64,000 nucleotides of DNA. Source: Candidatus Omnitrophota bacterium. GTDB lineage: Bacteria; Omnitrophota; Omnitrophia; Omnitrophales; Aquincolibacteriaceae. Shown here piece by piece: positions 35,820 through 64,000 of this stretch. Every line of letters begins with the position of its first letter. The first letter of the stretch is position 1. The position numbers and the translations under genes were made by a program. The stretch is from positions 4,947 to 68,946 of the forward strand of contig CAIOAT010000042.1 of NCBI GenBank assembly GCA_903856085.1, given 5' to 3'. Under the pieces are notes generated by a model, which saw nothing but the letters and a program-made list of their open reading frames with translations, searched no databases and was not told where the DNA came from.

Positions 35820-36724
35820 GATGTTTTCTCGATCACTCTCAGTTTGGCGCTTCTCGCTCTTGGATTATTCAATATTTCAGAACGGTTTGCAACCATTGGT
35901 TTGCGAAAAATTAAATTCCCACGTTCTTCGTCGTCCCATTTCCGGAACTGTTGTTTCACAATCCGGTCCTCAACCGAATGAAAGCTGATAATGCCAAGCC
36001 GTCCGGCTTTCTTCAGATGCTCAAACGCGACCGTCATGCCTTCCTTGAGCGCCTCTAGCTCATCATTCACCCCTATCCGGAGAGCTTGAAACACTTTAGT
36101 CGCCGGATGACGCCGCGCCCATGAAGGTCTTTGCCCTTTCTTGAATCGCATATGGGGGGGCAGCGCCTGTTCCAATGCCTGGTTGAGATCTTCGATAGTC
36201 TGGATGGGTTGTTGGCGCCGCCTTTCGACGATCACGCGGGCAAAACGCCGTGATTTGTGCTCTTCTCCGTAGTGATAAAAAAGATCCGCCAGCTCAACCT
36301 CGGACATTTGAGCAAGCAGCTCTGAGGCTTTAAGACCGACTTCCGGGTTCATCCGCATATCCAATTCCCCTTCCGTTTGGAAACTGAAACCGCGCTTCCC
36401 ATCCGCCAACTGTTCCGACGACGTCCCGATATCCAATAGCACCGCATCGAATGCTGCTACTTCCAATCCCGAAAAGACCTTCTTCAAATTCCTGAAGTTC
36501 TCGTGTACCAACGTAACCCGCGGATCTCCTCGAAACAACATCTGACATCTTGCGATTGCTTCAGGGTCCTGATCAAATCCGATCAATTTCCCCGAGGGAC
36601 CTATTTTCTCGAGAATCGCCTCCGAGTGCCCCCCACTCCCGAGCGTCCCATCCATCACCACAGCACCGGGTCTTAACGCTAAATGCTCAAGGACTTCTTG
36701 TAAAAGAACGGGCTTATGACGCAA
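35816..36724 (-). CDS. rsmH: 16S rRNA (cytosine1402-N4)-methyltransferase
   Basis: HKPVLLQEVL...VMDGTLGSGGHS...GIISFHSVEDRIVK MraW motifs. Confidence 0.9.
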   Translation of the reverse strand: MRHKPVLLQEVLEHLALRPGAVVMDGTLGSGGHSEAILEKIGPSGKLIGFDQDPEAIARCQMLFRGDPRVTLVHENFRNLKKVFSGLEVAAFDAVLLDIGTSSEQLADGKRGFSFQTEGELDMRMNPEVGLKASELLAQMSEVELADLFYHYGEEHKSRRFARVIVERRRQQPIQTIEDLNQALEQALPPHMRFKKGQRPSWARRHPATKVFQALRIGVNDELEALKEGMTVAFEHLKKAGRLGIISFHSVEDRIVKQQFRKWDDEERGNLIFRKPMVANRSEILNNPRARSAKLRVIEKTS

Positions 36725-37052
36725 AACTAAGAATCGCCTCTTCTTCCGTCGAATAACTTTCCATCAAACCATTGACCCCGATCATCTGGAGGGTCCTTTC
36801 TACTTCAGGACGCAAGTTGCACAATTTGATGTCCCCTTTTTGTTCGCGCACCTTACGCAAGCGGTCCACCAAAATACCAACACCCGCCAATTCCACATGT
36901 TTCGTATCTTTCAGATCCAGCAAAAGACGCTTGTGGTTCCTGTTGAGCAAACGGTTCATACGACCTTTCATTTTGATCATGCTAAGAGCGTCGAGATCTC
37001 CGTTGAAACGCAACACGTCCACTCCAACCTTCGTCCTGGCGTGATAGACCAT
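36714..37052 (-). CDS. STAS-domain protein (anti-sigma-factor antagonist-like) inserted between mraZ and rsmH
   Basis: SpoIIAA-like fold: LRFNGDLDALSMIKMKG...LLLDLKDTKHVELAGVGILV. Confidence 0.65.
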   Translation of the reverse strand: MVYHARTKVGVDVLRFNGDLDALSMIKMKGRMNRLLNRNHKRLLLDLKDTKHVELAGVGILVDRLRKVREQKGDIKLCNLRPEVERTLQMIGVNGLMESYSTEEEAILSFAS

Positions 37053-37065
37053 AATGGCTCCTTTT

Positions 37066-37503
37066 CTATTCCGATGCTAATTTTTCTGCGAGTTCTTCAA
37101 AATGGTTCTTATGATGATCAAAAAAGCCCTGCCATTTTTCTTTCGCCCAAATTTCAATACGACTTGATACACCGACGATCATGACCTCCGCCTTAATGTC
37201 GGCATAGGTCTTGAGATAATCCGGGATGAGAATCCTCCCCTGCTTGTCGCAAACAACTTCCGAAGCGCCCGAGAAAAAAAGCCGATTGAAGGTTCTGGAT
37301 TCGGCTTTAGTGAAAGGCATATCGCGAAACTTTTTTTCTTCCGTCTTCCATTGTTCTTCTGTGAAGACAAACAAGCATTGATCAAGACCGCGTGTAATGA
37401 AGAATCGTTCCACGTAACGTTCCTTGAAGATCTCTCGGAACTTGGCGGGGATCATCACGCGACTTTTTGTATCGATCACATGTTCGAATTCACCGTAAAA
37501 CAT
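37066..37503 (-). CDS. mraZ: transcriptional regulator MraZ
   Basis: Tandem MraZ/SpoVT-AbrB-like domains (MFYGEFEHVIDTKSRVMIPAKFRE...). Confidence 0.9.
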   Translation of the reverse strand: MFYGEFEHVIDTKSRVMIPAKFREIFKERYVERFFITRGLDQCLFVFTEEQWKTEEKKFRDMPFTKAESRTFNRLFFSGASEVVCDKQGRILIPDYLKTYADIKAEVMIVGVSSRIEIWAKEKWQGFFDHHKNHFEELAEKLASE

Positions 37504-37526
37504 GGATTCTCTTTCCTTTCAGGGTT

Positions 37527-37595
37527 CCCACTCTCTACCACTTTCCCCCACTTTATTATCGGCGGTAGTATATCTTTCCCTTAATATCGTGTCAA
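37527..37595 (-). promoter_or_regulatory. mraZ promoter (TTGACA-17 nt-TATACT) followed by three direct GTGG(G/T) repeats at 10-11-nt spacing (MraZ operator boxes)
   Basis: -35 at 37595..37590, -10 at 37572..37567, repeats at 37552..37527 (AGTGGGggaaAGTGGTagagAGTGGGaacc). Confidence 0.55.
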
Positions 37596-37764
37596 CATTC
37601 ATTTTAATTGGGAATCTCTCAAACAAAGGCACCTCTTATCCAGAGCACTCCCCTATAGGAGACAGCAGAGCGATGAGACAAGAAATGATGGGTTCCAGAT
37701 GGGGTAAGACAGTCTGGGCATAGCTTGGGGATAAAAGGCAGCGAACGGTTAAAACGGGAGAAAA

Positions 37765-38520
37765 CTAATTTTCGAAATAGAGAATGCGGGAGCAGTTCTC
37801 ACAAACAATAATCTGTTCACCCAAGCGGATTTCATTGATAAGCTGAGGACGCAGCTTCATCTGGCACGCAGCACAAACCTCACCGCTCACAACGGCGAGA
37901 GCAAGCCCCTGCTTCTTCAGAGCGATCCGGCTGTAAAGCTCTCCGAGCTCGGGCGGCAATTGCGCAACGGATTCTTCGCGTTGCTTTTTTAAATCCGCAA
38001 GGCGCCCCTGCAAGCTCTTTTCCTGACCGACCATTTCGTTGTCTCGGTCCTGAAAAGACTTGGTGATAGATGCGAACTTTTCTTTTTCTTTACGAGCCTC
38101 TTCTTTAGCCGCATCCACTTCATCAAAAATATGGATAATCCCTTCCTCGAGAAGTGAATTATCGGCCTTGAGCGAAGCGATCTCTTGTTGCAGCGCGGCG
38201 TATTCCTTATTCGTTTTTATCTGCGATAATTGCCCGTCAAGTTTTTTGATCTGAATCTCTTTTTGAGCAAGCTCCAGCTCCTTTTCCTTCAGTTTCAATT
38301 GAATATCTTTGAGGGATTTTTCCAACTCATTAGAGCGAATCTTTTCGAGCTCCAGTTCGGATTTGAGCTGGGCTCTCTCGGAGGGGATCTCTTCCAGGAG
38401 CAAATGGGCGCGATGAATCTCACTGTCCAATTGCTGGGCTTTTTTCAGGACATCGAGATTCTGGGTAATGGGACTTAGCATAAGTGGGGAGATTATAGAA
38501 GAGATGGCAGACACCATCAA
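37765..38520 (-). CDS. coiled-coil protein with C-terminal C4 zinc-ribbon (COG1579/zf-RING_7-like)
   Basis: Long heptad region; C-terminal CAAC...x17...CENC. Confidence 0.65.
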   Translation of the reverse strand: MMVSAISSIISPLMLSPITQNLDVLKKAQQLDSEIHRAHLLLEEIPSERAQLKSELELEKIRSNELEKSLKDIQLKLKEKELELAQKEIQIKKLDGQLSQIKTNKEYAALQQEIASLKADNSLLEEGIIHIFDEVDAAKEEARKEKEKFASITKSFQDRDNEMVGQEKSLQGRLADLKKQREESVAQLPPELGELYSRIALKKQGLALAVVSGEVCAACQMKLRPQLINEIRLGEQIIVCENCSRILYFEN

Positions 38521-38556
38521 GGACGAAATACAGCGAGCTTGTCCGGGAGAGGGGTC

Positions 38557-39093
38557 TTAGATCCGATGCAAAGCCAGAGACAATTCTGCAAGACCCGAGA
38601 TTTCCTCTGACGTCAGGCGAGCACTCTGCAAAAAACTACTCGAAGAAGCATGACGGTGGGAGGGCGCCTCCCCATCGGGGCTAGGGCTTGGAACATGCAT
38701 CGAAGAAGGGATCCATTTACAGATCCGGACGCCGAGTTTTTCTTTATCCGCACCACAAAGGCCCCCATATTCAAAAAAGCTCAAACGATCACTGAAACCG
38801 TTCATCCTGAAAATCTGCTGGCGGTCCAATTCCGGATAGAAAAGGTAGAGCACCGCGTCATGGGACATCAGCACCCAAAGTTTCTTAATTTCCCGCTGCA
38901 ACTCTTCCACGGAAAAATCCCTCATTGACCGATAAAAGATACGCACCCAAACTTGCGCATCTTTACTTTTAAAAAGAAACGGAGTGCCATTCACATCTTC
39001 GAGAATTACTTTATCCGCGTGAAGCTCCTGAATGGACAAACGAATCGATTGGAATATCTCCTGACGGACAACGCGCTCTTGGGTCGCTATCAT
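38557..39093 (-). CDS. hypothetical protein, third gene of the ParA-CBM48 operon
   Basis: ATG 39093 overlaps the upstream stop by 1 nt; no recognisable domain. Confidence 0.45.
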   Translation of the reverse strand: MIATQERVVRQEIFQSIRLSIQELHADKVILEDVNGTPFLFKSKDAQVWVRIFYRSMRDFSVEELQREIKKLWVLMSHDAVLYLFYPELDRQQIFRMNGFSDRLSFFEYGGLCGADKEKLGVRICKWIPSSMHVPSPSPDGEAPSHRHASSSSFLQSARLTSEEISGLAELSLALHRI

Positions 39094-39902
39094 CGTGATA
39101 CCTCTACGGGGGCGCTGGCCTGCGTTTTTCTCTCTAAAGATTCGATCCAGCCAGCCAGCACGAACTTCGGAAGACTGGGCTTTGCATTCCAATGCTGATA
39201 TTTCAATGGCTCTGTGTGAAGAGCTGCCGAGAAATGCCGCGCAGGGTCTGCAAGGTCCATCCACCCTAACCATCCAAGATGAGTGTCAAGATGCTTGTAC
39301 GCAAAATCCGAGAACCGATCGAAGACCATGACGCCCTTCGCTTCCTCTGCCTTTCCGGACAGAGTGATGTGAAATTCGAGTTGCGGGTTAAGCGCGAGTC
39401 CGATCTTCATCATCTTGTAACCTTCCGTCAAGGATTCAGCCGTGGGTTTTAACAATAGCACCCATTTATCTAGCAGAGAAACGGCCTTTTCAAAGTGAAG
39501 AAGGTGACGATACTCGAAATCCAGAAAAATATCCCGGCTCTGCAGCACTCCCTCGGCTCGAGACGAGAAAGGCTCGCTGATAAGATCGCGAAGCTCATCC
39601 CAATAAAGGCAATACCTCTCAAGACGGTCCCCAAACGATTCTGGCATACCCTGCCCAGATCCAGAAGAAACCTTGGCATAACGCGATAAAACACTGAGGA
39701 GAGAACATGGTTTATCGGGAGACGCGATCTGCGAAGCAAAGAATGTGTTCAAAAGGAGCGAATCTCCATCGCAGTCTGGACTCGAAACCCCCACCACCTG
39801 AACTTCGGGAGAACGAAGGCCCGGGACTTCTCCGGGAACCGCGCTAAAAAGAGGCGAGATATCCCTCAACCCACGAACAAGTTTTTTAGGATCGTCTATC
39901 AT
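39090..39902 (-). CDS. hypothetical protein with ParB-like N-terminal basic peptide (candidate partner/adaptor of the ParA-CBM48 ATPase)
   Basis: ATG 39902 verified, overlaps the ATPase stop (TGATG); N-terminus MIDDPKKLVRGLRDISPLF resembles ParB/partner ATPase-stimulating peptides. Confidence 0.5.
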   Translation of the reverse strand: MIDDPKKLVRGLRDISPLFSAVPGEVPGLRSPEVQVVGVSSPDCDGDSLLLNTFFASQIASPDKPCSLLSVLSRYAKVSSGSGQGMPESFGDRLERYCLYWDELRDLISEPFSSRAEGVLQSRDIFLDFEYRHLLHFEKAVSLLDKWVLLLKPTAESLTEGYKMMKIGLALNPQLEFHITLSGKAEEAKGVMVFDRFSDFAYKHLDTHLGWLGWMDLADPARHFSAALHTEPLKYQHWNAKPSLPKFVLAGWIESLERKTQASAPVEVSR

Positions 39903-41002
39903 CAGGCAAACTCCATGTACGAATCGACGCCGCCATAGGCATTTTCTTTCTGCGTCGGCTGGCTTGGATCCACCTGCCACTCTCCGTCCACAATAAACTT
40001 GTAACGGAACGTCTTGAGCTCCACTGAAATAACCTTCTGCCAAAGCCCATCCTGATTACGGCGAACGAGGGGCTCCGGAACCCAGTGATTGAAATCTCCG
40101 GCGATTTCCACCGAAGACGCTGTTTTACTCGAAAACTGGAAAAGGATCCCATCGGAGATCTGACGCGGTCCAAAATGGTTCTTAAAGACCTGCTCCCAAC
40201 CGAGCTCTTTTTCCGGAAGTTTCCGATTCCAATCTCGCTCCAGATATTCTACTGCGAGATTCAGATAATCCTGAAAAGCCAGCGATTGGGGCGCATATTG
40301 AACAATGCTCTGTCCTGCAGCTGCCGCTTCCTTCAGACTGACATGTTCATGAATGATCGTCGTGAAAAGCCGGTTCTGGAAATGAGCTTTCACTTCGTCA
40401 TAGATCTCGTGAGAAAAATTTACTTCGGAATTGAAAAGCGTCAACAGCGCATGAACGGCAAGAGGCACTTCCCGGCTCCGGTTTACGACCTGGAGGGTCT
40501 CCGAGATCTTCGCAAGCCCGTGAAGTGAGAAAAAAGACGGCTCAACCGGAACCACGACCTCATCGGCCGCATTTAAGGCATTCCAGGTGAGGATTCCGAG
40601 ATTAGGCGGACAGTCCAGAACTACAACGTCATAATGGCGCTGATCTTCACAAATCCGATTCAGAAGATCGCGGAGCTTGAGATGGTAATTGGGCATAAAC
40701 CCGAATTCTTCTTCAAGCGCATTCAAGCTGGCATTACATGGGATAAGATCAAAATCGGGTTTCAGACTCCGAATAACTTGAGAGAAAGGCGGAACGATAC
40801 GCTGAAGCGGGCTTAAAAGATCATAAAGGGTCAACATCCCCTTCTGGGTCTTGATCCCCAACCCAATCGTGGAATGCCCCTGCGGGTCCAAATCGATCAC
40901 GAGAACTTTCTTCTGCAGAAAATTCAGACACGCTGAGAAATTGATGCTGGTCGTGGTCTTCCCACACCCGCCTTTTTGGTTCGCAATAGCGATAATTCTC
41001 AA
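39902..41002 (-). CDS. ParA/MinD-family P-loop ATPase fused to a C-terminal AMPK-beta-like glycogen-binding domain (CBM48)
   Basis: TTG start with AAGGAG SD; deviant Walker A NQKGGCGKTTTS and DLDPQGH; C-terminus VEIAGDFNHW...FRYKFIVDGEWQVDPSQP aligns to the AMPK-beta GBD motif (GSFNNW...YKFFVDGQWTHDPSEP). Confidence 0.8.
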   Translation of the reverse strand: MRIIAIANQKGGCGKTTTSINFSACLNFLQKKVLVIDLDPQGHSTIGLGIKTQKGMLTLYDLLSPLQRIVPPFSQVIRSLKPDFDLIPCNASLNALEEEFGFMPNYHLKLRDLLNRICEDQRHYDVVVLDCPPNLGILTWNALNAADEVVVPVEPSFFSLHGLAKISETLQVVNRSREVPLAVHALLTLFNSEVNFSHEIYDEVKAHFQNRLFTTIIHEHVSLKEAAAAGQSIVQYAPQSLAFQDYLNLAVEYLERDWNRKLPEKELGWEQVFKNHFGPRQISDGILFQFSSKTASSVEIAGDFNHWVPEPLVRRNQDGLWQKVISVELKTFRYKFIVDGEWQVDPSQPTQKENAYGGVDSYMEFA

Positions 41003-41203
41003 AAAGATAGTCTCCTTGAATTGAAAATAGTTGGTGTTAATGTAACGGCTTCGCTTAGTAAAGCTTTATAGTAATGAAAGCGCCCTGAGAGAGATCAAAA
41101 TGTCAGGGAGAAGATCGGCAAGAAAAGCGATAAAACCGGAACTGCTTTAGTAAGATCAATAGCTGCAGAAGACTTATCGGACGGAGAAAACGGATCTCGC
41201 TGT

Positions 41204-42157
41204 TCAGTGCTTTTCGAACATAAGAAGCCGCTCGATCGGGACAACCCCTTTAATATCCCCGCTTCGATCGGTCACCACAGCATAGGACTGGCGTTTCTTC
41301 TGAAGCATCAGGAAGGCTTTCGCCAAGGAGGTATCCTCGGAGATAAAAATGGGGGCCCGAAGAAAATCATGAAGCCCTTGAGCATTCTCCTCCTCCCAAA
41401 GGATATCGAAGATATAGACCATCCCCATGACAATGGACGGCACTTCCTCGTAAACGAGCATCATACGAACGTGCGTCTCCCGTGCGATTTTTTTGACATC
41501 CTCGATTTTGCTATGAATATCCACCATCGGGACCTTCCCCACCGGCACCATCACCGAGGAGACATGGATCCGCTCAAAATCAAGGATGGTATGGATCAAT
41601 TTTTCTTCCTGGAGTCCTACGATGCCTCTCTGCGTGCTTTCTTCGATAAGTGAGCGGAATTCTTCCTCGTTCACAAAGATATCCCGGACCACGCCCTGCT
41701 GGAAAGACGGCCAGACAAAGTCGAGCGCCCTGAAGAACAGGATGATCGGCCCGTACAAAACTGCCTTGAGACCTTTAAGCCAAACGGTCTGCCCCAGCAG
41801 AAAAGGGATCGCATTTAAGCGACCGTAATCCTTGGGAACCATTTCCGCGAAAATAATCAGAACCGGAGCGATCACCAACATCACAGCCCATTCGTTGTTC
41901 CAACCGCAATATTCCTTAAAGAAGCAAGTTGCGATCGAGATTGCCGTGACGTTCACCACACTATTCCCGATCAGAATCGCGGTCAGAAAATAATTGGGAT
42001 ACTGTTGAAGCTGCATAATGAACCTGGCTTTTTTATCGCCAGTATCCGCCATTTCACGAAGTCGCAGCTTGTTCGCGGAAACAAAAGCCATCTCAGCCCC
42101 CGAAAAGAAGGCCGAAGCAACCAACGATAAGAAAAACAGGGTCAGAAGACCGATCAT
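41204..42157 (-). CDS. CNNM/DUF21 plus CBS-pair membrane protein (CorC/HlyC-family paralog lacking the C-terminal CorC_HlyC domain)
   Basis: N-terminal DUF21 TM region, two CBS domains, ends after CBS2. Confidence 0.7.
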   Translation of the reverse strand: MIGLLTLFFLSLVASAFFSGAEMAFVSANKLRLREMADTGDKKARFIMQLQQYPNYFLTAILIGNSVVNVTAISIATCFFKEYCGWNNEWAVMLVIAPVLIIFAEMVPKDYGRLNAIPFLLGQTVWLKGLKAVLYGPIILFFRALDFVWPSFQQGVVRDIFVNEEEFRSLIEESTQRGIVGLQEEKLIHTILDFERIHVSSVMVPVGKVPMVDIHSKIEDVKKIARETHVRMMLVYEEVPSIVMGMVYIFDILWEEENAQGLHDFLRAPIFISEDTSLAKAFLMLQKKRQSYAVVTDRSGDIKGVVPIERLLMFEKH

Positions 42158-52439: not shown

Positions 52440-52784
52440 TTAGAACGTAATCCTCTCGGCGATCTCATGGATCACCGGAATCTCCCACCGCTCCCCCATC
52501 AGCACCTTCACAATCCCGATGAGTGAAAGGATCCCGAGAACCACAAACGCCAACGTAAATACCAAGTCCCCCAATGCGGGAACGACCTTCAGGATTGCCG
52601 CGGCCAACTCCAGGATAAAAAGCACCAGGGCCTGTTTTCCGTGAAAAAGCGCAAACTTGTTCTCTTTCTTGAGTACAAGCGGCACAAAACAAAGAAAGCT
52701 CAGATAGCCAATCGCCGCAAAAAACTGCGCATCCTGAATCTCCGGGTCCTTGGGCGCCACAACTTTTTCATTCGCAGTCATCAT
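52440..52784 (-). CDS. DUF4870-family small membrane protein
   Basis: AAIGYLSFLCFVPLVLKKENKFALFHGKQALVLFI pattern. Confidence 0.55.
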   Translation of the reverse strand: MMTANEKVVAPKDPEIQDAQFFAAIGYLSFLCFVPLVLKKENKFALFHGKQALVLFILELAAAILKVVPALGDLVFTLAFVVLGILSLIGIVKVLMGERWEIPVIHEIAERITF

Positions 52785-55545: not shown

Positions 55546-55890
55546 TCAGGTTTTAGCGCCTAAACACTCGACCGCCTCCGCGACGGTGGCGGTGATCTCA
55601 AAAATGCTGTCAAGTTTTGCGATCTCGAAAACACCTCGAACCGTGGAAGTGAGCGCCGCGAGAATAAGCCGGCCTTGATAGCGTTTAGCCTTCTGGAATG
55701 CTTCTACAAAGGTCGCGATGCCGGAACTGTCCATATAGTCCACGCCGCCCAAGTTCACAAGGATCTTGGGAGCCTGTTTCGCGGTCAATTCCGTCAATTT
55801 TTCACGAAGTTCAGGCGAAGAATGATAATCCAATTCCCCGGAAAGTTCTAACACTTGAATATCCCCTTGATTCGACGATTGTATTTTCAT
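55546..55890 (-). CDS. STAS-domain anti-sigma-factor antagonist (RsbV/SpoIIAA-like; MlaB-like by position)
   Basis: VLELSGELDYHSSPELREKL...VNLGGVDYMDSSGIATFV with the phosphorylatable Ser context. Confidence 0.75.
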   Translation of the reverse strand: MKIQSSNQGDIQVLELSGELDYHSSPELREKLTELTAKQAPKILVNLGGVDYMDSSGIATFVEAFQKAKRYQGRLILAALTSTVRGVFEIAKLDSIFEITATVAEAVECLGAKT

Positions 55891-55906
55891 AGTTCACCTT
55901 CCCTTT

Positions 55907-56311
55907 TCAAATTTTGGTCCTGTGCTTGATCAAACGAAGCCGGTTCCCTTCCGGGTCCTGATCGTCATAGATCATCTGATCCATGATCGTCCTGATAAAA
56001 TGAACTCCCAGACCGCCCGGTTTGTGGCGTGGAAGTTCCGGGGAGGGCACTTGAGTCGGATCAAACTTCTTACCCCAGTCCTCCAGCACAATTTCGATCT
56101 TATCGTCAGAGGTTCCAACGGTCACCGCCATCTTGCCCGATTTGCCCTGATAAGCGTGCCTGATAATATTCGTCAAAGCCTCATCGACCGCTAAAAGAAT
56201 CTCTTCGGCGGACTTCTTTTCCCATCCCGCCTGGTTCAGAATGTGGCGAAGTTCCTTTCGGAAAGGCGAAAGAACCTCGGACGAGGCTGTCAGTTCAAAT
56301 CTTTTTTCCAC
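55907..56311 (-). CDS. anti-sigma regulatory factor / Ser-protein kinase (RsbW/SpoIIAB-like GHKL ATPase)
   Basis: EALTNIIRHAY N-box and GGLGVHFI G-box; preferred start GTG 56311 (AGGGGG SD) rather than the track's GTG 56389. Confidence 0.6.
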   Translation of the reverse strand: MEKRFELTASSEVLSPFRKELRHILNQAGWEKKSAEEILLAVDEALTNIIRHAYQGKSGKMAVTVGTSDDKIEIVLEDWGKKFDPTQVPSPELPRHKPGGLGVHFIRTIMDQMIYDDQDPEGNRLRLIKHRTKI

Positions 56312-56961
56312 TCGACCCCCTGCTGGAGGAGTTCCCGGAGGATCGTGCGAGACGAAAAGATTCTCCGAGTCCTTTCTTTCGCAAAGCACATCTGAAGATA
56401 CCGCGCGACGATATCGACTTCGAGATTGACCTCAAAACCCACCCGTTTGATCCCAAGAGTTGTGACTTGAAGCGTGTGCGGTATCACCGCGATCTGAAAT
56501 ATCTTCCCGCGAACTTTCTGCACTGTCAAACTAATCCCGTCGCAAGCAATCGATCCTTTGTCCGCGAGAAGTGCGATTATATCCTTGGAGGCCGTCAGGA
56601 ACAAGGTCGTATTCTTCTTTCGCTTTTCGATCTTCACAATCGTACCACGACCATCAATATGCCCTGTGACGAAATGCCCGCCAAGCCCATCCCCGATCTT
56701 CAAAGATCTCTCAAGGTTCACGCGTCCTCCGCGTTCCAGCATTCCCAGCGTGGTCGCTTCCAGAGTTTGGCGCACCACATCCACTTCAAAACCTCTGGCG
56801 CTCGCGCGCACTGCGGTGAGACACACCCCGGATACCGCGATGCTGTCCCCGACCTTCAAACCTTTTTCTTTTTTCTGAAAGCGAAACCCGAACCGGACTT
56901 GGCCGCCGCGCTCTTCTTTCTTTATAACGATACCCTGATTCTCAACAATGCCTGTAAACAT
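56290..56961 (-). CDS. ribE: riboflavin synthase
   Basis: MFTGIVE...duplicated lumazine-binding domains. Confidence 0.85.
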   Translation of the reverse strand: MFTGIVENQGIVIKKEERGGQVRFGFRFQKKEKGLKVGDSIAVSGVCLTAVRASARGFEVDVVRQTLEATTLGMLERGGRVNLERSLKIGDGLGGHFVTGHIDGRGTIVKIEKRKKNTTLFLTASKDIIALLADKGSIACDGISLTVQKVRGKIFQIAVIPHTLQVTTLGIKRVGFEVNLEVDIVARYLQMCFAKERTRRIFSSRTILRELLQQGVEWKKDLN

Positions 56962-61665: not shown

Positions 61666-64000
61666 TTATTGCAAGCCACCGATCTGGACGCGAAGATCAC
61701 CGACCTCGTCCCCCGCAGTCACCGAAGAAGGATCCACCGTGAAAGAGATCTTTTGGATATGTTTAAGATCGACCTTCTTTGCCGCAAGCGAGGTCAGGAA
61801 CTTGTAATAATTTTTGGAAACATCCACATTATCAACCTTGAACGCGGCACGTTTCCCTTTCGTGTCCTCGATCTCAAAAATAACGCTTTTAGCCTTGTCT
61901 GAGTCGATTTCAAAAACAATTTTTTCTTTTTTGGAAAGATCAATGCTCTTCCCCTTTGTGTTCGGATCGAATTGAAAGACAAGCCGCGCATACGCATTCG
62001 CAGTCGCGACATCAAAATGAAGCCCGAACACATTCTTCGCGAACCGCCTCATACGACTATTCGCCGAAGAGCCCACCACTTGCGCCACCCCGTTCCCGGG
62101 AAGTATTGTCACAGCCGATGTCATCCCGGTGCTCATGGGAACCAGGTCCTGAATCGTTGACGAAAGAGTAGTTAACTGCGGAGTCAGCACTAGGGCTGCC
62201 GTCACAGGCGGACTACTTGCATCCACTGAACTTTGTGCTTCCAATACCGGAAAATTTTCCGATCCGCTGCTGGATCCCGTAGTTTGTTCTGTCTCGGATT
62301 GACCGCTCAGGCTCGCTGCTAAAGTGGAACTTCCCGACGTTTCACTGCTCCCTACCGATAAGACAGCCGTGGTCATAGCAGGCGCTACGGCAAGTTTTGT
62401 GGCAACCATGCCAGCGGCCGCTACTAAAGGGCTTGGGGACGACACAAAATGCTGGAACGTGAGAGAGTGGATCGTAAAATCAAAGCTCTTATCTCCCGTC
62501 GCGTTCTGATCAACGATGATGTGAACTTCTTTGACCGCATTGAGAATAGCCGCGTTCTTCAAATTGATGACCAAACGGCCAACACGCACGCCATTGGCCA
62601 ACGTTTGCGTCACAGCATCCAGAAGCGCGCCACTCGCATCCTTGAATTCGATCCTGATCGCTTGCGGAGTATCCACAGTCGTGTAATAAATGACCAACTG
62701 GTTCGCCTGAGCATTATACGCATCTTTTAACTTCCAATAGTGTCCGCCCCATCCTCCGGCTAACGCAACGCTGCTCTTGAACTGGACACCGTAAACACCG
62801 GTGGTGCCGCCATTGGGATAGATACCGGGGAACGAACCGTCAGTGCCTTCGCTTTCAACATGACTGAAAACCGCGAGTGAACGATCCGGGACCTCGGGAG
62901 CGTTCGAAAATCCTGCCGTCGTTTTTGTGATTTCCACAAGTCTCTTGCTTGCGGCATCGTACAAAAGATTGTACGCAGACTCAAGAGTGTACTTTCTGAG
63001 ATAAGCTTGAAAATCAACGGCGCCTTGCCCTCCAAGCCCAAGAATGGCCGAAGCGACATCGATCCCAATATATTCCCGGGCCATTTCGCTGGCGGAACGG
63101 GCCGAATCAAAAAATCCGTAAGTGCCATTGAGACCTGGGACGTAGTTATAAGCATCCAGCCAACCGAGCACCGCATTGCGATCAATAGGCAATGCCGATG
63201 CCAAGGCGTAAGTCGAACCCACGTTCATCACCACCGTGTCGTAATAGTTCGCAAGATGCGAAGGATTGAGCATTTGCTCCGCGAGACTCGGGACACCGGT
63301 CGCTCCGGAATAGCCTCCTTCGGGAAGTGCACTGGCGGAGGGAATACCCGGCAGATTGTTCTGCGCCGCCCAGTCCAGTTGACTGACAAGCTGATTGTAG
63401 AGCATGTTCCGGAATCCGATAAAAGACATCTCGTCGTTTCGGAGCATCGGCCAGAAACTCTGAAACGCGGCCCCATCCCAGGACATGACGTTCTCGATCA
63501 CAGTGCCATTCCGGTCCGTATAATTCGCAGTTTTGATCTCGAGATTGTCCCAAACTGTTCTTGAGATTCCAGGATAACGCACCTGGATAAAAGCCACTGC
63601 ACCACGAACTTCAGAATTCAGCCGATCCACATAAGAAGAGAATTGAGCTGCATCCCGGTCGTAGCTCATGTGAAACACTCCATAAAGGGGGTCCACAAAC
63701 GCCTGATAGCCGGACGTCTGAGCCGTCAAAAATTGCTCTGCCTTCACGAGGATTGGATCGGTCGCACTAATCCCCGCACTCAATAACGCCCCTTCCATCA
63801 CGGCAATGCTCTGCGCCATGTTCGCATTATCAAGTAAGCCGAAGGACACATGACCGCTTGGGTAATCGAGAATAGGAGTTCCGGTATCAAGGTTCATCCA
63901 CGGGATAAGCCCGTTCCAGTTCGTTGCGTTATTCGTCTGCAAGTTCCGAAGACTCGTCAGAACCGCATTGATCTCCGCGAGTGCCTCAGTCGTGCTCATA
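61666..64000 (-). CDS. large (over 777 aa) secreted/surface protein with Ser/Thr-rich linker, N-terminus beyond the window end, hypothetical
   Basis: Single long ORF reaching the window edge; globular N-terminal region, S/T/G-rich low-complexity segment, C-terminal beta-rich region. Confidence 0.45.
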   Translation of the reverse strand, partial: MSTTEALAEINAVLTSLRNLQTNNATNWNGLIPWMNLDTGTPILDYPSGHVSFGLLDNANMAQSIAVMEGALLSAGISATDPILVKAEQFLTAQTSGYQAFVDPLYGVFHMSYDRDAAQFSSYVDRLNSEVRGAVAFIQVRYPGISRTVWDNLEIKTANYTDRNGTVIENVMSWDGAAFQSFWPMLRNDEMSFIGFRNMLYNQLVSQLDWAAQNNLPGIPSASALPEGGYSGATGVPSLAEQMLNPSHLANYYDTVVMNVGSTYALASALPIDRNAVLGWLDAYNYVPGLNGTYGFFDSARSASEMAREYIGIDVASAILGLGGQGAVDFQAYLRKYTLESAYNLLYDAASKRLVEITKTTAGFSNAPEVPDRSLAVFSHVESEGTDGSFPGIYPNGGTTGVYGVQFKSSVALAGGWGGHYWKLKDAYNAQANQLVIYYTTVDTPQAIRIEFKDASGALLDAVTQTLANGVRVGRLVINLKNAAILNAVKEVHIIVDQNATGDKSFDFTIHSLTFQHFVSSPSPLVAAAGMVATKLAVAPAMTTAVLSVGSSETSGSSTLAASLSGQSETEQTTGSSSGSENFPVLEAQSSVDASSPPVTAALVLTPQLTTLSSTIQDLVPMSTGMTSAVTILPGNGVAQVVGSSANSRMRRFAKNVFGLHFDVATANAYARLVFQFDPNTKGKSIDLSKKEKIVFEIDSDKAKSVIFEIEDTKGKRAAFKVDNVDVSKNYYKFLTSLAAKKVDLKHIQKISFTVDPSSVTAGDEVGDLRVQIGGLQ

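Follow-up and report, generated by a model that had tools for sequence, protein, structure and literature searches.

A 64,000 nt stretch of DNA from a Candidatus Omnitrophota bacterium (contig CAIOAT010000042.1; hereafter the window) carries an operon headed by the gene for a ParA/Soj-type ATPase that is fused at its C-terminus to an AMPK-beta-type glycogen-binding domain (CBM48). We tentatively propose that the ATPase and the products of the two genes that follow it form a ParA-type spatial-organization module, in which the ATPase itself would be anchored to alpha-glucan (glycogen). The fusion is real and widespread: it gave at least 577 matches in species-representative genomes, the same domain pair is present in more than 120 full-length homologues, and its carriers include Omnitrophota, Desulfobacterales, Planctomycetota, Acidobacteria, Eisenbacteria, Latescibacterota and others. 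Databases name these proteins only 'AAA family ATPase', 'chromosome partitioning protein' or 'hypothetical'. Full-text literature searches did not retrieve a description of the fusion, and a targeted reading of a survey of ParA/MinD systems (PMC10241942) found none, in agreement with the preliminary description of this DNA, which had named no characterized system of this kind. The features of the locus are given in Table 1, and the same four genes were called independently on public contigs of identical sequence.

Table 1. Features of the operon and its flanks (window coordinates).
Feature	Position	Strand	Remarks
Intergenic gap ahead of operon, 201 nt	41003..41203	-	holds AAGGAG (41017..41012)
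ATPase gene, 366 aa, ParA/Soj-type + CBM48 fusion	39902..41002	-	TTG start; Pfam
ATPase domain, aa 1-250	40253..41002	-	deviant Walker A, Walker A', Walker B, EPSFFSLHGL
Linker, aa 251-290	40133..40252	-	YLERdWnRkLPekELGW...GPR; fusion-family-specific, conserved
CBM48 / AMPK-beta-type glycogen-binding domain, aa 291-366	39905..40132	-	phmmer alignment to AMPK beta-1 CBM
ORF2, 270 aa, predicted ATPase-activating partner, flexible N-terminal tail	39090..39902	-	ParA/MinD-fold pseudo-ATPase
ORF2 N-terminal peptide, aa 1-19	39846..39902	-	MIDDPKKLVRGLRDISPLF; resembles ParA-interaction motif of ParB/Spo0J
ORF3, 178 aa, accessory protein	38557..39093	-	probable PD-(D/E)xK/NucS_C-like fold, disordered linker, conserved C-terminal helix (aa 162-177, 38563..38610)
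CT398/HP0958-like coiled-coil zinc-ribbon gene	37765..38520	-	Pfam Zn_ribbon_9 + CT398_CC

The TTG start codon of the ATPase gene (41002..41000) is preceded, 9 nt upstream, by the Shine-Dalgarno sequence AAGGAG (sequence inspection). Its product carries a deviant Walker A motif, KGGCGKTT, with the signature lysine K10 as well as K15, followed by DLDPQGH (D37xD39PQGH), the Walker B aspartate D130 and a family-specific motif, EPSFFSLHGL; the length, start codon, ribosome-binding site and first two motifs had been reported previously, and each was recovered in place. Both AAA_31 (160.6 bits, E 5e-47; cut-off 27) and CbiA (61.4 bits, E 1.1e-16; cut-off 25.4) match the protein well above their Pfam thresholds. 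The closest solved structure to the ATPase domain is M. xanthus ParA (8ray, E 3e-48), and the other best solved relatives are the Soj proteins of T. thermophilus (1wcv, E 8e-42) and H. pylori. Conservation was counted over 81 members of the fusion family from several phyla, some of them only 33% identical: K10, K15, D37 and D39 are kept in 80/80 aligned proteins (one row is gapped at these positions) and D130 in 81/81.

The residues with which such a domain would contact DNA are less well preserved in this protein. In the alignment with H. pylori Soj (HpSoj), the DNA-contacting lysines K199, K227, K230 and K247 correspond to H198, E219, S222 and Q239, so that none of the four aligned sites has a basic residue for non-specific DNA binding, which fits a matrix other than DNA. 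The conserved K224 might compensate for these replacements. Many of the relatives do have basic residues nearby, K/R at 222 and R at 193 (81-protein alignment). The sites that we tentatively take to be equivalent to R189 and R218 of B. subtilis Soj have R in 71/81 and K/R in 50/81 proteins, respectively. Since most members outside the clade of this operon keep these basic, Soj-like residues, nucleoid binding may be ancestral. A C-terminal amphipathic helix is absent from the ATPase, the C-terminus being the CBM48 domain.

This domain is joined to the ATPase by a linker in which W258, P263, W269, G278 and P279 are invariant (alignment A3). The preliminary description had recognized it as AMPK-beta-like, and it scores above the Pfam thresholds of both AMPK1_CBM (aa 293-359, 43.2 bits; cut-off 26.8) and CBM_48 (29.5 bits; cut-off 22.4). 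The C-terminal 97 aa also match solved AMPK beta-1/beta-2 CBM chains (4yef, 1z0m; E 2.4e-7) and the CBM48s of pullulanase, SEX4 and GlgB, and on these sequence comparisons the assignment is well past chance level. In the phmmer alignment, W307, K335 and W342 fall on W100, K126 and W133 of AMPK beta-1, and extending the alignment by hand puts D360 in the place of N150 and an aromatic residue, 356, beside the position of L146. These five beta-1 residues, whose numbering was checked, are what we take to be the sugar-contacting set. Across the family, W307 and W342 are each present in 79/79 proteins, K335 is K/R in 73/79, residue 360 is D/N in 73/73, and the aromatic at 356 is likewise conserved. 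Such near-invariance of the Trp/Lys/Trp set and D/N360, at identities down to 33%, would be difficult to account for if the domain bound no sugar, and it is predicted to bind glycogen.

Gene context offers independent support for a glycogen link. A gene for a GH57 alpha-glucan enzyme lies near the fusion in 16/80 related loci, 13 of which have a same-strand GH57-U195-ATPase cluster. At two of the three scored partner-type loci (L020 and L037), the GH57 product scores about 340 bits against branching-enzyme models, short of the equivalog cut-off. Also in favor, glycogen synthesis is commonly encoded by Omnitrophota MAGs (PMC8542988). Against the glycogen link, no glg or GH57 gene lies less than about 78 kb from this operon. 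That absence of glg genes would suit a CBM48-like domain that has lost carbohydrate binding and become an Ig-like protein-interaction module, its protein cargo being set by ORF2 and ORF3. The large non-peptide bodies of these two proteins could bind cargo, as partners usually do (PMC10241942). Such an exchange of ligand is, however, improbable when the sugar-contacting positions have been held almost invariant across several phyla and GH57 genes sit next to the fusion in one-fifth of the loci.

The gene directly downstream of the ATPase is a partner of the ORF2 type in 43/80 related loci, which span several phyla and the deep branches of the family tree. Neither ORF2 nor ORF3 matches a Pfam or NCBIfam model, and it is by intermediate profiles that ORF2 is related to ParA-like ATPases; its fold is MinD/FlhG/FleN-like. 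The P-loop position reads VSSPDCDGDS, the Walker A motif being replaced by SSPDCDGDS with loss of its lysines, and an invariant D47 occupies the site expected for the GKT lysine. Because of this degenerate Walker A and the invariant D47, ORF2 is best regarded as a pseudo-ATPase rather than a functional member of the FlhG/FleN/MinD group. The partner at one related locus (L053) reaches the Pfam CbiA threshold and retains SGKGVRGKT. This degenerate fold did not feature in the preliminary description.

The most conserved stretch of the partner across phyla is the GLGRGL-like N-terminal peptide already remarked upon in that description. Residues L8, R10, G11, L12, D14, S16 and F19 are invariant (alignment A1), and a [KR]KLGRGLxD[IV]SHLFLS motif is present in partners of other phyla too. 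Compared residue by residue with the first 20 amino acids of T. thermophilus Spo0J, MSRKPSGLGRGLEALLPKTG, the ORF2 peptide agrees with the Spo0J/ParB motif at P5, L8, R10, G11, L12 and P17. Most of residues 1-28 have pLDDT values below 50 in the structure model, and the tail is predicted to be flexible. N-terminal peptides of this type suffice for ParA binding and stimulation (PMC12462528; PMC10241942). By its sequence, the ORF2 peptide would stimulate the fused ATPase in the same way.

A ParB-like peptide on a partner encoded immediately downstream (LxRGLxD..LF against GLGRGLEALL of Spo0J), the database name 'chromosome partitioning protein', and an ATPase domain that has all the catalytic motifs and is nearest to M. 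xanthus ParA and T. thermophilus Soj are what chromosomal ParABS systems would also present. An ordinary chromosome or plasmid partition ATPase with an incidental extra domain is nevertheless very improbable. There is no ParB, as ORF2 lacks CTPase, ParB/Srx and HTH domains and folds like MinD/FlhG. Within 37400..41400, only short two-copy chance repeats were found, with no parS-like repeats, iterons or other centromere-like array, though a parS may lie farther away, and the locus lies in a housekeeping chromosomal context. The C-terminal CBM48 and the replacement of the canonical DNA-contact residues, including the four HpSoj lysine sites, are further departures from ParABS.

At the ATPase/ORF2 junction, the TGATG overlap of 1 nt (at 39902) is as first described, but that at the ORF2/ORF3 junction is an ATGA overlap of 4 nt (39090..39093) rather than a second one-base overlap. 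The ORF2 and ORF3 starts are each preceded by GGAG/GAGG at 7-8 nt, and both junctions are of a kind typical of translational coupling. The promoter-sized gap reported ahead of the operon is real, but a simple sigma-70 scan found no sigma-70-type promoter on the minus strand of 41003..41203. ORF3 had been described as lacking a recognizable domain, which holds for sequence-family searches but not for its fold, which appears to be PD-(D/E)xK/NucS_C-like and to lack the catalytic ExK. The coiled-coil zinc-ribbon gene, whose identification in the preliminary description agrees with Pfam, is located 36-75 nt downstream, with a promoter-like site of its own (38520..38492); its product scores 81.7 bits against the NCBIfam CdsZ-like model, below the cut-off. 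It is adjacent to the module only within a close Omnitrophota clade and is probably a mere neighbor, not a component of the module. The conserved core is the ATPase and its peptide-bearing partner, in a unit of two to three genes and not the block of four that had been envisaged.

Only in this one clade are the zinc-ribbon gene and the mraZ cluster found alongside the module, which there lies directly upstream of CT398-mraZ-STAS-rsmH-ftsL-ftsI. A YfiH/PgeF-type gene follows the module at L020 and L022. These neighborhoods, together with the Soj-like DNA-binding residues of most relatives, which could act on the nucleoid in the manner of MipZ/PomZ, would accord with a glycogen-sensing regulator. 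The ATPase and its partner would then position or regulate another target (divisome, nucleoid or pili), and the CBM48, serving to sense glycogen or as a handle for sequestration, would couple this activity to the state of the carbon reserve, as its counterpart does in AMPK. The domain does belong to the AMPK-beta type, and AMPK-beta CBMs make protein contacts too, so that a regulatory role could be accommodated. We consider this unlikely: the dcw genes adjoin the module as members of a syntenic block of 15 genes, much longer than the module itself, and do so in no other clade; none of the division proteins shows a consistent link with it; and the GH57 linkage favors glucan metabolism over division.

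For a glucan-anchored module, the following cycle can be envisaged. Binding of ATP would yield a dimer of the ParA domain presenting two CBM48s, and hence avid, ATP-dependent binding to glycogen particles, paralleling the way in which MinD dimers gain membrane affinity through two amphipathic tails and ParA dimers gain affinity for DNA. The disordered, ParB-like peptide of ORF2 would dock on this dimer and trigger ATP hydrolysis, returning a weakly binding monomer, and ORF3, with its apparently dead nuclease fold and C-terminal helix, may be an accessory joining ORF2 to a further structure. Through this cycle, the ATPase would tether, space or partition glycogen granules, or enzymes on them; glycogen may be its cargo, or even its matrix. 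More doubtful than the anchored module is a self-organizing glycogen-granule system in the full sense, in which an ATPase bound to glycogen via CBM48 and found, with GH57 linkage, in at least six phyla would be cycled by a pseudo-ATPase with a ParB-like peptide. Because glycogen particles in bacteria are small and present in large numbers, they may not need active positioning, which counts against both proposals. The glycogen-linked interpretation of the preliminary description was put to three tests (domain score, partner conservation and membership of a known family), none of which spoke against it.

ParA/MinD ATPases are the means by which bacteria generally place chromosomes, plasmids, carboxysomes, chemoreceptor arrays, flagella and the divisome. 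Glycogen is the most widespread bacterial carbon store, yet we know of no ParA/MinD positioning system for it, and the distribution and inheritance of glycogen particles are, to our knowledge, essentially unstudied. If the self-organizing reading is correct, active positioning or partition of glycogen would be described here for the first time, and a cargo-binding module on the ATPase instead of the partner would be equally new. The fusion family is a concrete candidate, having a built-in glucan-binding module and a cognate activator peptide that is easily synthesized, and the lineages with relatives (Desulfobacterales, Planctomycetota, Acidobacteria) may include culturable members.

Parallels with several known systems can be drawn. 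The MinD-like protein FlhG uses an N-terminal peptide to activate its partner FlhF, a SIMIBI NTPase, and so provides a precedent for a MinD-fold protein activating another NTPase via its N-terminus. In ORF2, however, the Walker A lysines are lost, the peptide is ParB-like and not the FlhG DQAxxLR, the predicted target is a ParA ATPase instead of an SRP-type GTPase, and there is no flagellar context. The CBM48 of the ATPase keeps the equivalents of AMPK beta-1 W100, K126 and W133, with D for N150, and AMPK beta, the plant PTST proteins, SEX4 and STBD1 illustrate how proteins without enzymatic activity can be directed to glycogen or starch by a CBM; all of these are eukaryotic regulators or adaptors, and none carries a P-loop positioning ATPase as a fusion partner. 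With McdA/McdB, PomXYZ, ParC/ParP and PpfA, the module shares an ATPase with an adjacent partner and, by our reading, a non-DNA cargo. In cargo-positioning partners, it is a disordered, charged N-terminus that contacts the ATPase (PMC10241942). There, nucleoid binding falls to the ATPase and the choice of cargo to the partner alone, whereas here the ATPase itself bears the putative cargo- or matrix-binding module. The fusion would thus break the usual division of labor (ATPase for matrix, partner for cargo), and a ParA-fold pseudo-ATPase appears to have been recruited as the predicted activator; both features bear on the evolution of such systems and on the design of synthetic positioning modules.

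All genes of the module lie on the minus strand of the window, and their positions are listed below together with those of other features mentioned in the text. The preliminary description had the junctions between the first three genes as one-base overlaps of the form TGATG. This is the arrangement found between the stop codon of the ATPase-CBM48 gene and the ATG of ORF2; the ORF2 stop and the ORF3 ATG also overlap, but by four bases (ATGA). A GGAG/GAGG sequence sits 7-8 nt before the starts of ORF2 and ORF3, and a promoter-like TTGATG-17-TATAAT site is found directly before the CT398-like gene, which codes for a coiled-coil zinc-ribbon protein. Upstream of the ATPase-CBM48 gene is a 201-nt gap, preceded by two CNNM/CBS genes, and no promoter was matched within this gap by a sigma-70 consensus scan.

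Positions of the module genes and of other features discussed (window positions unless a public contig is named)
Feature	Position	Strand	Description
ATPase-CBM48 gene	39902..41002	-	366 aa, TTG start, AAGGAG 9 nt before start
ORF2	39090..39902	-	270 aa, ATG start
ORF3	38557..39093	-	178 aa, ATG start
CT398-like gene	37765..38520	-	36-75 nt downstream of ORF3
STAS-domain gene	36714..37052	-	anti-sigma-antagonist-like; between mraZ and rsmH, head of division/cell-wall cluster
Small membrane protein gene	52440..52784	-	MamF_MmsF Pfam match (…FFAAIGYLSFLCFVPLVLKKENKFALFHGKQALVLF…); not beside any ParA
Second STAS gene, paired with HATPase_c_2 gene	55546..56389	-	HATPase_c_2 product anti-sigma-factor kinase-like; pair upstream of MlaEFD-type transporter
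Giant gene (part)	61666..63999	-	runs past window end (L084 173-6424); 2083 aa as called on public contig
Second Methyltransf_5 (RsmH-like) paralogue	L085 12479-13543		same contig, ~1 kb past left end of window

The same gene calls are present on identical public contigs of up to 188 kb, and homologues are labelled Candidatus Omnitrophota. The surroundings are chromosomal and of the housekeeping type, including L21/L27, obg, proBA, nadD, the pur operon, mreBCD and mraZ-rsmH-ftsL-ftsI. The insertion of a STAS gene between mraZ and rsmH is kept in about 12 related Omnitrophota loci, and the Methyltransf_5 paralogue is additional to the rsmH of the dcw cluster. The product of the giant gene is without a Pfam match and is of a kind reported for Omnitrophota.

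The ATPase part of the fusion protein matches Pfam AAA_31 (5e-47) and CbiA (1e-16) and reaches no NCBIfam equivalog cut-off; its nearest solved structures are chromosomal ParA/Soj proteins, those of M. xanthus ParA (8ray, 3e-48) and T. thermophilus Soj (8e-42). Residues 293-359 score 43.2 bits against AMPK1_CBM (cut-off 26.8) and 29.5 bits against CBM_48 (cut-off 22.4), and the C-terminal 97 aa match the solved CBMs of AMPK beta-1/beta-2 (E 2.4e-7), as well as the CBM48s of pullulanase, SEX4 and GlgB. The sugar-contact residues of beta-1 are W100, K126, W133, L146 and N150 (numbering checked in this analysis). The first three align with W307, K335 and W342 of the window protein, and extension of the alignment by hand adds D360 at the position of N150 and residue 356, an aromatic, beside that of L146.

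Conservation was assessed over 81 family proteins (the window protein and those of 80 related loci, 33-95% identical). The Walker A/A' residues K10, K15, D37 and D39 are kept in 80/80 aligned proteins, one row being gapped, and the Walker B residue D130 in 81/81. In the CBM, W307 and W342 are each present in 79/79 proteins, K335 in 73/79 (as K/R) and D360 in 73/73 (as D/N). The 40-aa linker between the two domains is specific to the fusion and contains five invariant residues (W258, P263, W269, G278 and P279). Since these residues and the linker are conserved over the family, the fusion is a real, selected architecture, with an ATPase that is probably active and a CBM that is probably sugar-binding; given the retained contact positions, we consider it distinctly unlikely that the CBM has been turned into a protein-binding module. 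An assembly or frameshift artefact was ruled out, as fusion and linker are kept in hundreds of genomes.

The lysines involved in non-specific DNA binding by H. pylori Soj are K199, K227, K230 and K247 (PMC6393308). The corresponding residues of the window protein are H198, E219, S222 and Q239. Across the family, the position of K230 is K/R in 50/81 proteins. A second position, E193 in the window protein, which we take to be the equivalent of B. subtilis Soj R189 by way of the alignment to 8ray, is R in 71/81. Both basic residues are lost only in the clade of the window, where a conserved K224 lies two residues away from a lost basic position. By these alignments, the canonical DNA surface of the window protein is degraded. 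Loss of DNA binding by the whole family was ruled out by the basic residues that most members have at the two Soj-equivalent positions, and departure of the family from the nucleoid is accordingly not claimed here. Ordinary DNA partition, for all the closeness of the ATPase to chromosomal ParA/Soj, is nevertheless a very improbable function of the module, given the degraded DNA-contact residues, the absence of ParB and the lack of any centromere-like repeats in 37400..41400.

ORF2 has no match in Pfam or NCBIfam, and its 114 homologues are all unnamed or annotated as 'hypothetical protein', those with organism labels being Omnitrophota/Omnitrophica MAGs. Counts for ORF2 were taken from iterative HMM search rounds at 1e-4 and from the N-terminal motif; a round at E 1e-3 drifted into true ParA ATPases (from 50 to 128 matches), so its counts were dropped. 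The most conserved segment of ORF2 is the N-terminus, KKLxRGLKDISPLF, with L8, R10, G11, L12, D14, S16 and F19 invariant in the family alignment (A1). This peptide aligns with the ParA-interaction motif of Spo0J/ParB: between the ORF2 N-terminus (MIDDPKKLVRGLRDISPLF) and residues 1-20 of T. thermophilus Spo0J (MSRKPSGLGRGLEALLPKTG, confirmed in 1vz0), M1, P5, L8, R10, G11, L12 and P17 are identical. Peptides of this type are by themselves enough for ParA binding and stimulation (PMC12462528), as is also the case for diverse ParA/MinD partners (PMC10241942). The AlphaFold model of ORF2 (pLDDT 79, pTM 0.78) has low confidence for most of residues 1-28, and the remainder is modelled as an alpha/beta domain. 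At the P-loop position ORF2 reads VSSPDCDGDS, and with an invariant Asp in place of the GKT lysine it is a pseudo-ATPase.

Compared directly, the profiles of the ORF2 family (A1) and the ATPase family (A3) gave no significant match. A profile built from partners of other phyla finds both the ORF2 family, at probability 98.6 (E 1e-15), and the ATPase domain, at probability 97.1 (E 5e-11); in the latter match ITSGKGVRGKT is set on ANQKGGCGKTT. It is only through this intermediate that the homology of ORF2 and the ATPase becomes visible. One of these partners, that at L053 (one of the numbered public loci), exceeds the Pfam CbiA threshold (32.9 bits). ORF2 is probably the cognate partner of ATPase-CBM48 and is itself of the ParA/MinD fold.

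A scan of GTDB (one genome per species, candidates drawn by Walker A stretch and CBM motif patterns) gave at least 577 confirmed matches to the family alignment, the full-length fusion being verified only for those examined in detail. In the best 80 of these, the whole 366 aa are mostly covered; L039 ends at a contig end and seven others end at residue 346-357, before the C-terminus. The 80 loci come from Omnitrophota, Desulfobacterales and 'delta proteobacteria', Planctomycetia and Phycisphaerae, Acidobacteria, Eisenbacteria, Latescibacterota, Auribacter and Pseudomonadota MAGs. The next downstream gene starts with [KR]KLGRGLxD[IV]SHLFLS or a close variant in 43 of the 80, and partner-bearing loci are found on all deep branches of a neighbour-joining tree. 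The partner body is ParA/MinD-like in most of the 43, with GKT kept in a few; at six Desulfobacterales loci (L034, L035, L036, L040, L042 and L057) the partner is short and Cys-rich (182-187 aa), retaining the peptide (KxLGRGLxDISDIFLS) without the MinD-like body. At L035, L040 and L057 the short partner is followed by a conserved protein of ~230 aa without Pfam matches.

The zinc-ribbon gene, proposed earlier as the fourth gene of the block, does not belong to this core. It is in the close Omnitrophota clade alone that the CT398-like gene adjoins the module, together with mraZ, STAS, rsmH, ftsL and ftsI; the block there also takes in the CNNM genes, obg, proBA and nadD. As the adjacency is confined to this one-clade, obg-to-ftsI syntenic block, the CT398-like gene and the mraZ/dcw cluster were ruled out as module parts and are treated as neighbours.

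ORF3 has 122 close homologues; a deep profile search of 1.84 billion representatives retrieved only 35 relatives and connected the protein with no named family. The model of ORF3 (pLDDT 71) combines a helix with a small mixed sheet; residues 130-157 are disordered, and the terminal helix, residues 162-177, is conserved. ORF3 shows no ExK motif and therefore probably serves as a binding module, not as a nuclease. At 11 non-close loci, the third gene specifies an N-terminal NucS_C-like domain (a weak match, E 2e-3, without ExK) and a C-terminal L[ST]xEE[IL]xxL helix. Comparison of this third-gene family with ORF3 by hhalign was not significant; from the shared architecture, the weak NucS_C match and the common C-terminal helix, we infer that the two are equivalent. 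L019 and L025 have no separate ORF3; there the ORF2-like partner adjoining the ATPase carries the ORF3 helix motif (F..x.RLsxEEIxxF) as a fusion at its own end. This fusion ties genes 2 and 3 together and is a Rosetta-stone hint that their products may act together.

When all neighbours within 6 kb were clustered, a GH57 gene was found at 16 of the 80 loci. At 13 of them it heads a same-strand cluster, followed by 'U195' and then ATPase-CBM48, an arrangement that characterizes a derived subfamily (33-39% identical) without a peptide-bearing partner (L046, L048, L050, L055, L059, L061, L065, L070, L072 (5807-9837), L074, L079, L080 and others). The cluster is conserved in this subfamily and runs, on one strand and in order, from GH57 through U195 (a ~190-aa single-pass membrane protein with a conserved N-terminus, MxKxEIYEHLAxxYLG, and no Pfam match) and ATPase-CBM48 to a membrane protein of ~108 aa and, as the fifth gene product, a protein of ~130 aa whose N-terminal tail is rich in Lys and which has a weak EF-Tu-domain-2 match. 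The role of partner may here be taken by U195 or by the Lys-rich protein. The small MamF_MmsF protein of the window resembles, as judged by eye, the ~108-aa membrane protein.

Among partner-type loci, L020, L022 and L037 have GH57 1-4 kb downstream; branching-enzyme models, scored for L020 and L037, match both proteins over their full length at ~340 bits, below the equivalog cut-off. At L020 (10123-13071) and L022 (11725-15386), a few genes past the module, a DUF4912/glucodextranase-B-like protein is encoded directly before GH57 and is possibly a further glycogen-associated protein. With few GH57 genes per genome, their frequency near the fusion is far above chance, though the loci are phylogenetically related. 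Glycogen synthesis is commonly encoded in Omnitrophota MAGs (PMC8542988). No glg gene was found near the operon of the window within ~78 kb (a span reaching ~10 kb past the left end of the window and ~4 kb past the right). That the module is a glycogen-sensing regulator of another process is conceivable, if unlikely.

From the parts of the module, their motifs, folds, conservation and context, we infer a ligand, a mode of stimulation and an outcome in a tentative scheme, which we favour over the alternatives although it falls a little short of even odds. Dimerization of the ParA domain by ATP would unite two CBM48s for avid glycogen binding, and docking of the flexible ParB-like peptide of ORF2 on the dimer would bring about hydrolysis and release. 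The pseudo-ATPase body of ORF2, with ORF3, would provide a second attachment point, and the cycle would tether or distribute glycogen particles, or enzymes on them.

Source annotations of the fusion are generic, and neither a ParA-CBM48 protein nor an active glycogen-positioning system was found described in full-text literature searches of incomplete coverage or in a survey paper on ParA/MinD. The likeness to known ParA/partner modules lies in the proposed way of working. Unlike in those modules, the cargo- or matrix-binding domain is here carried by the ATPase, the predicted activator is a ParA-fold pseudo-ATPase, and there is an accessory protein with a putative dead-nuclease fold.
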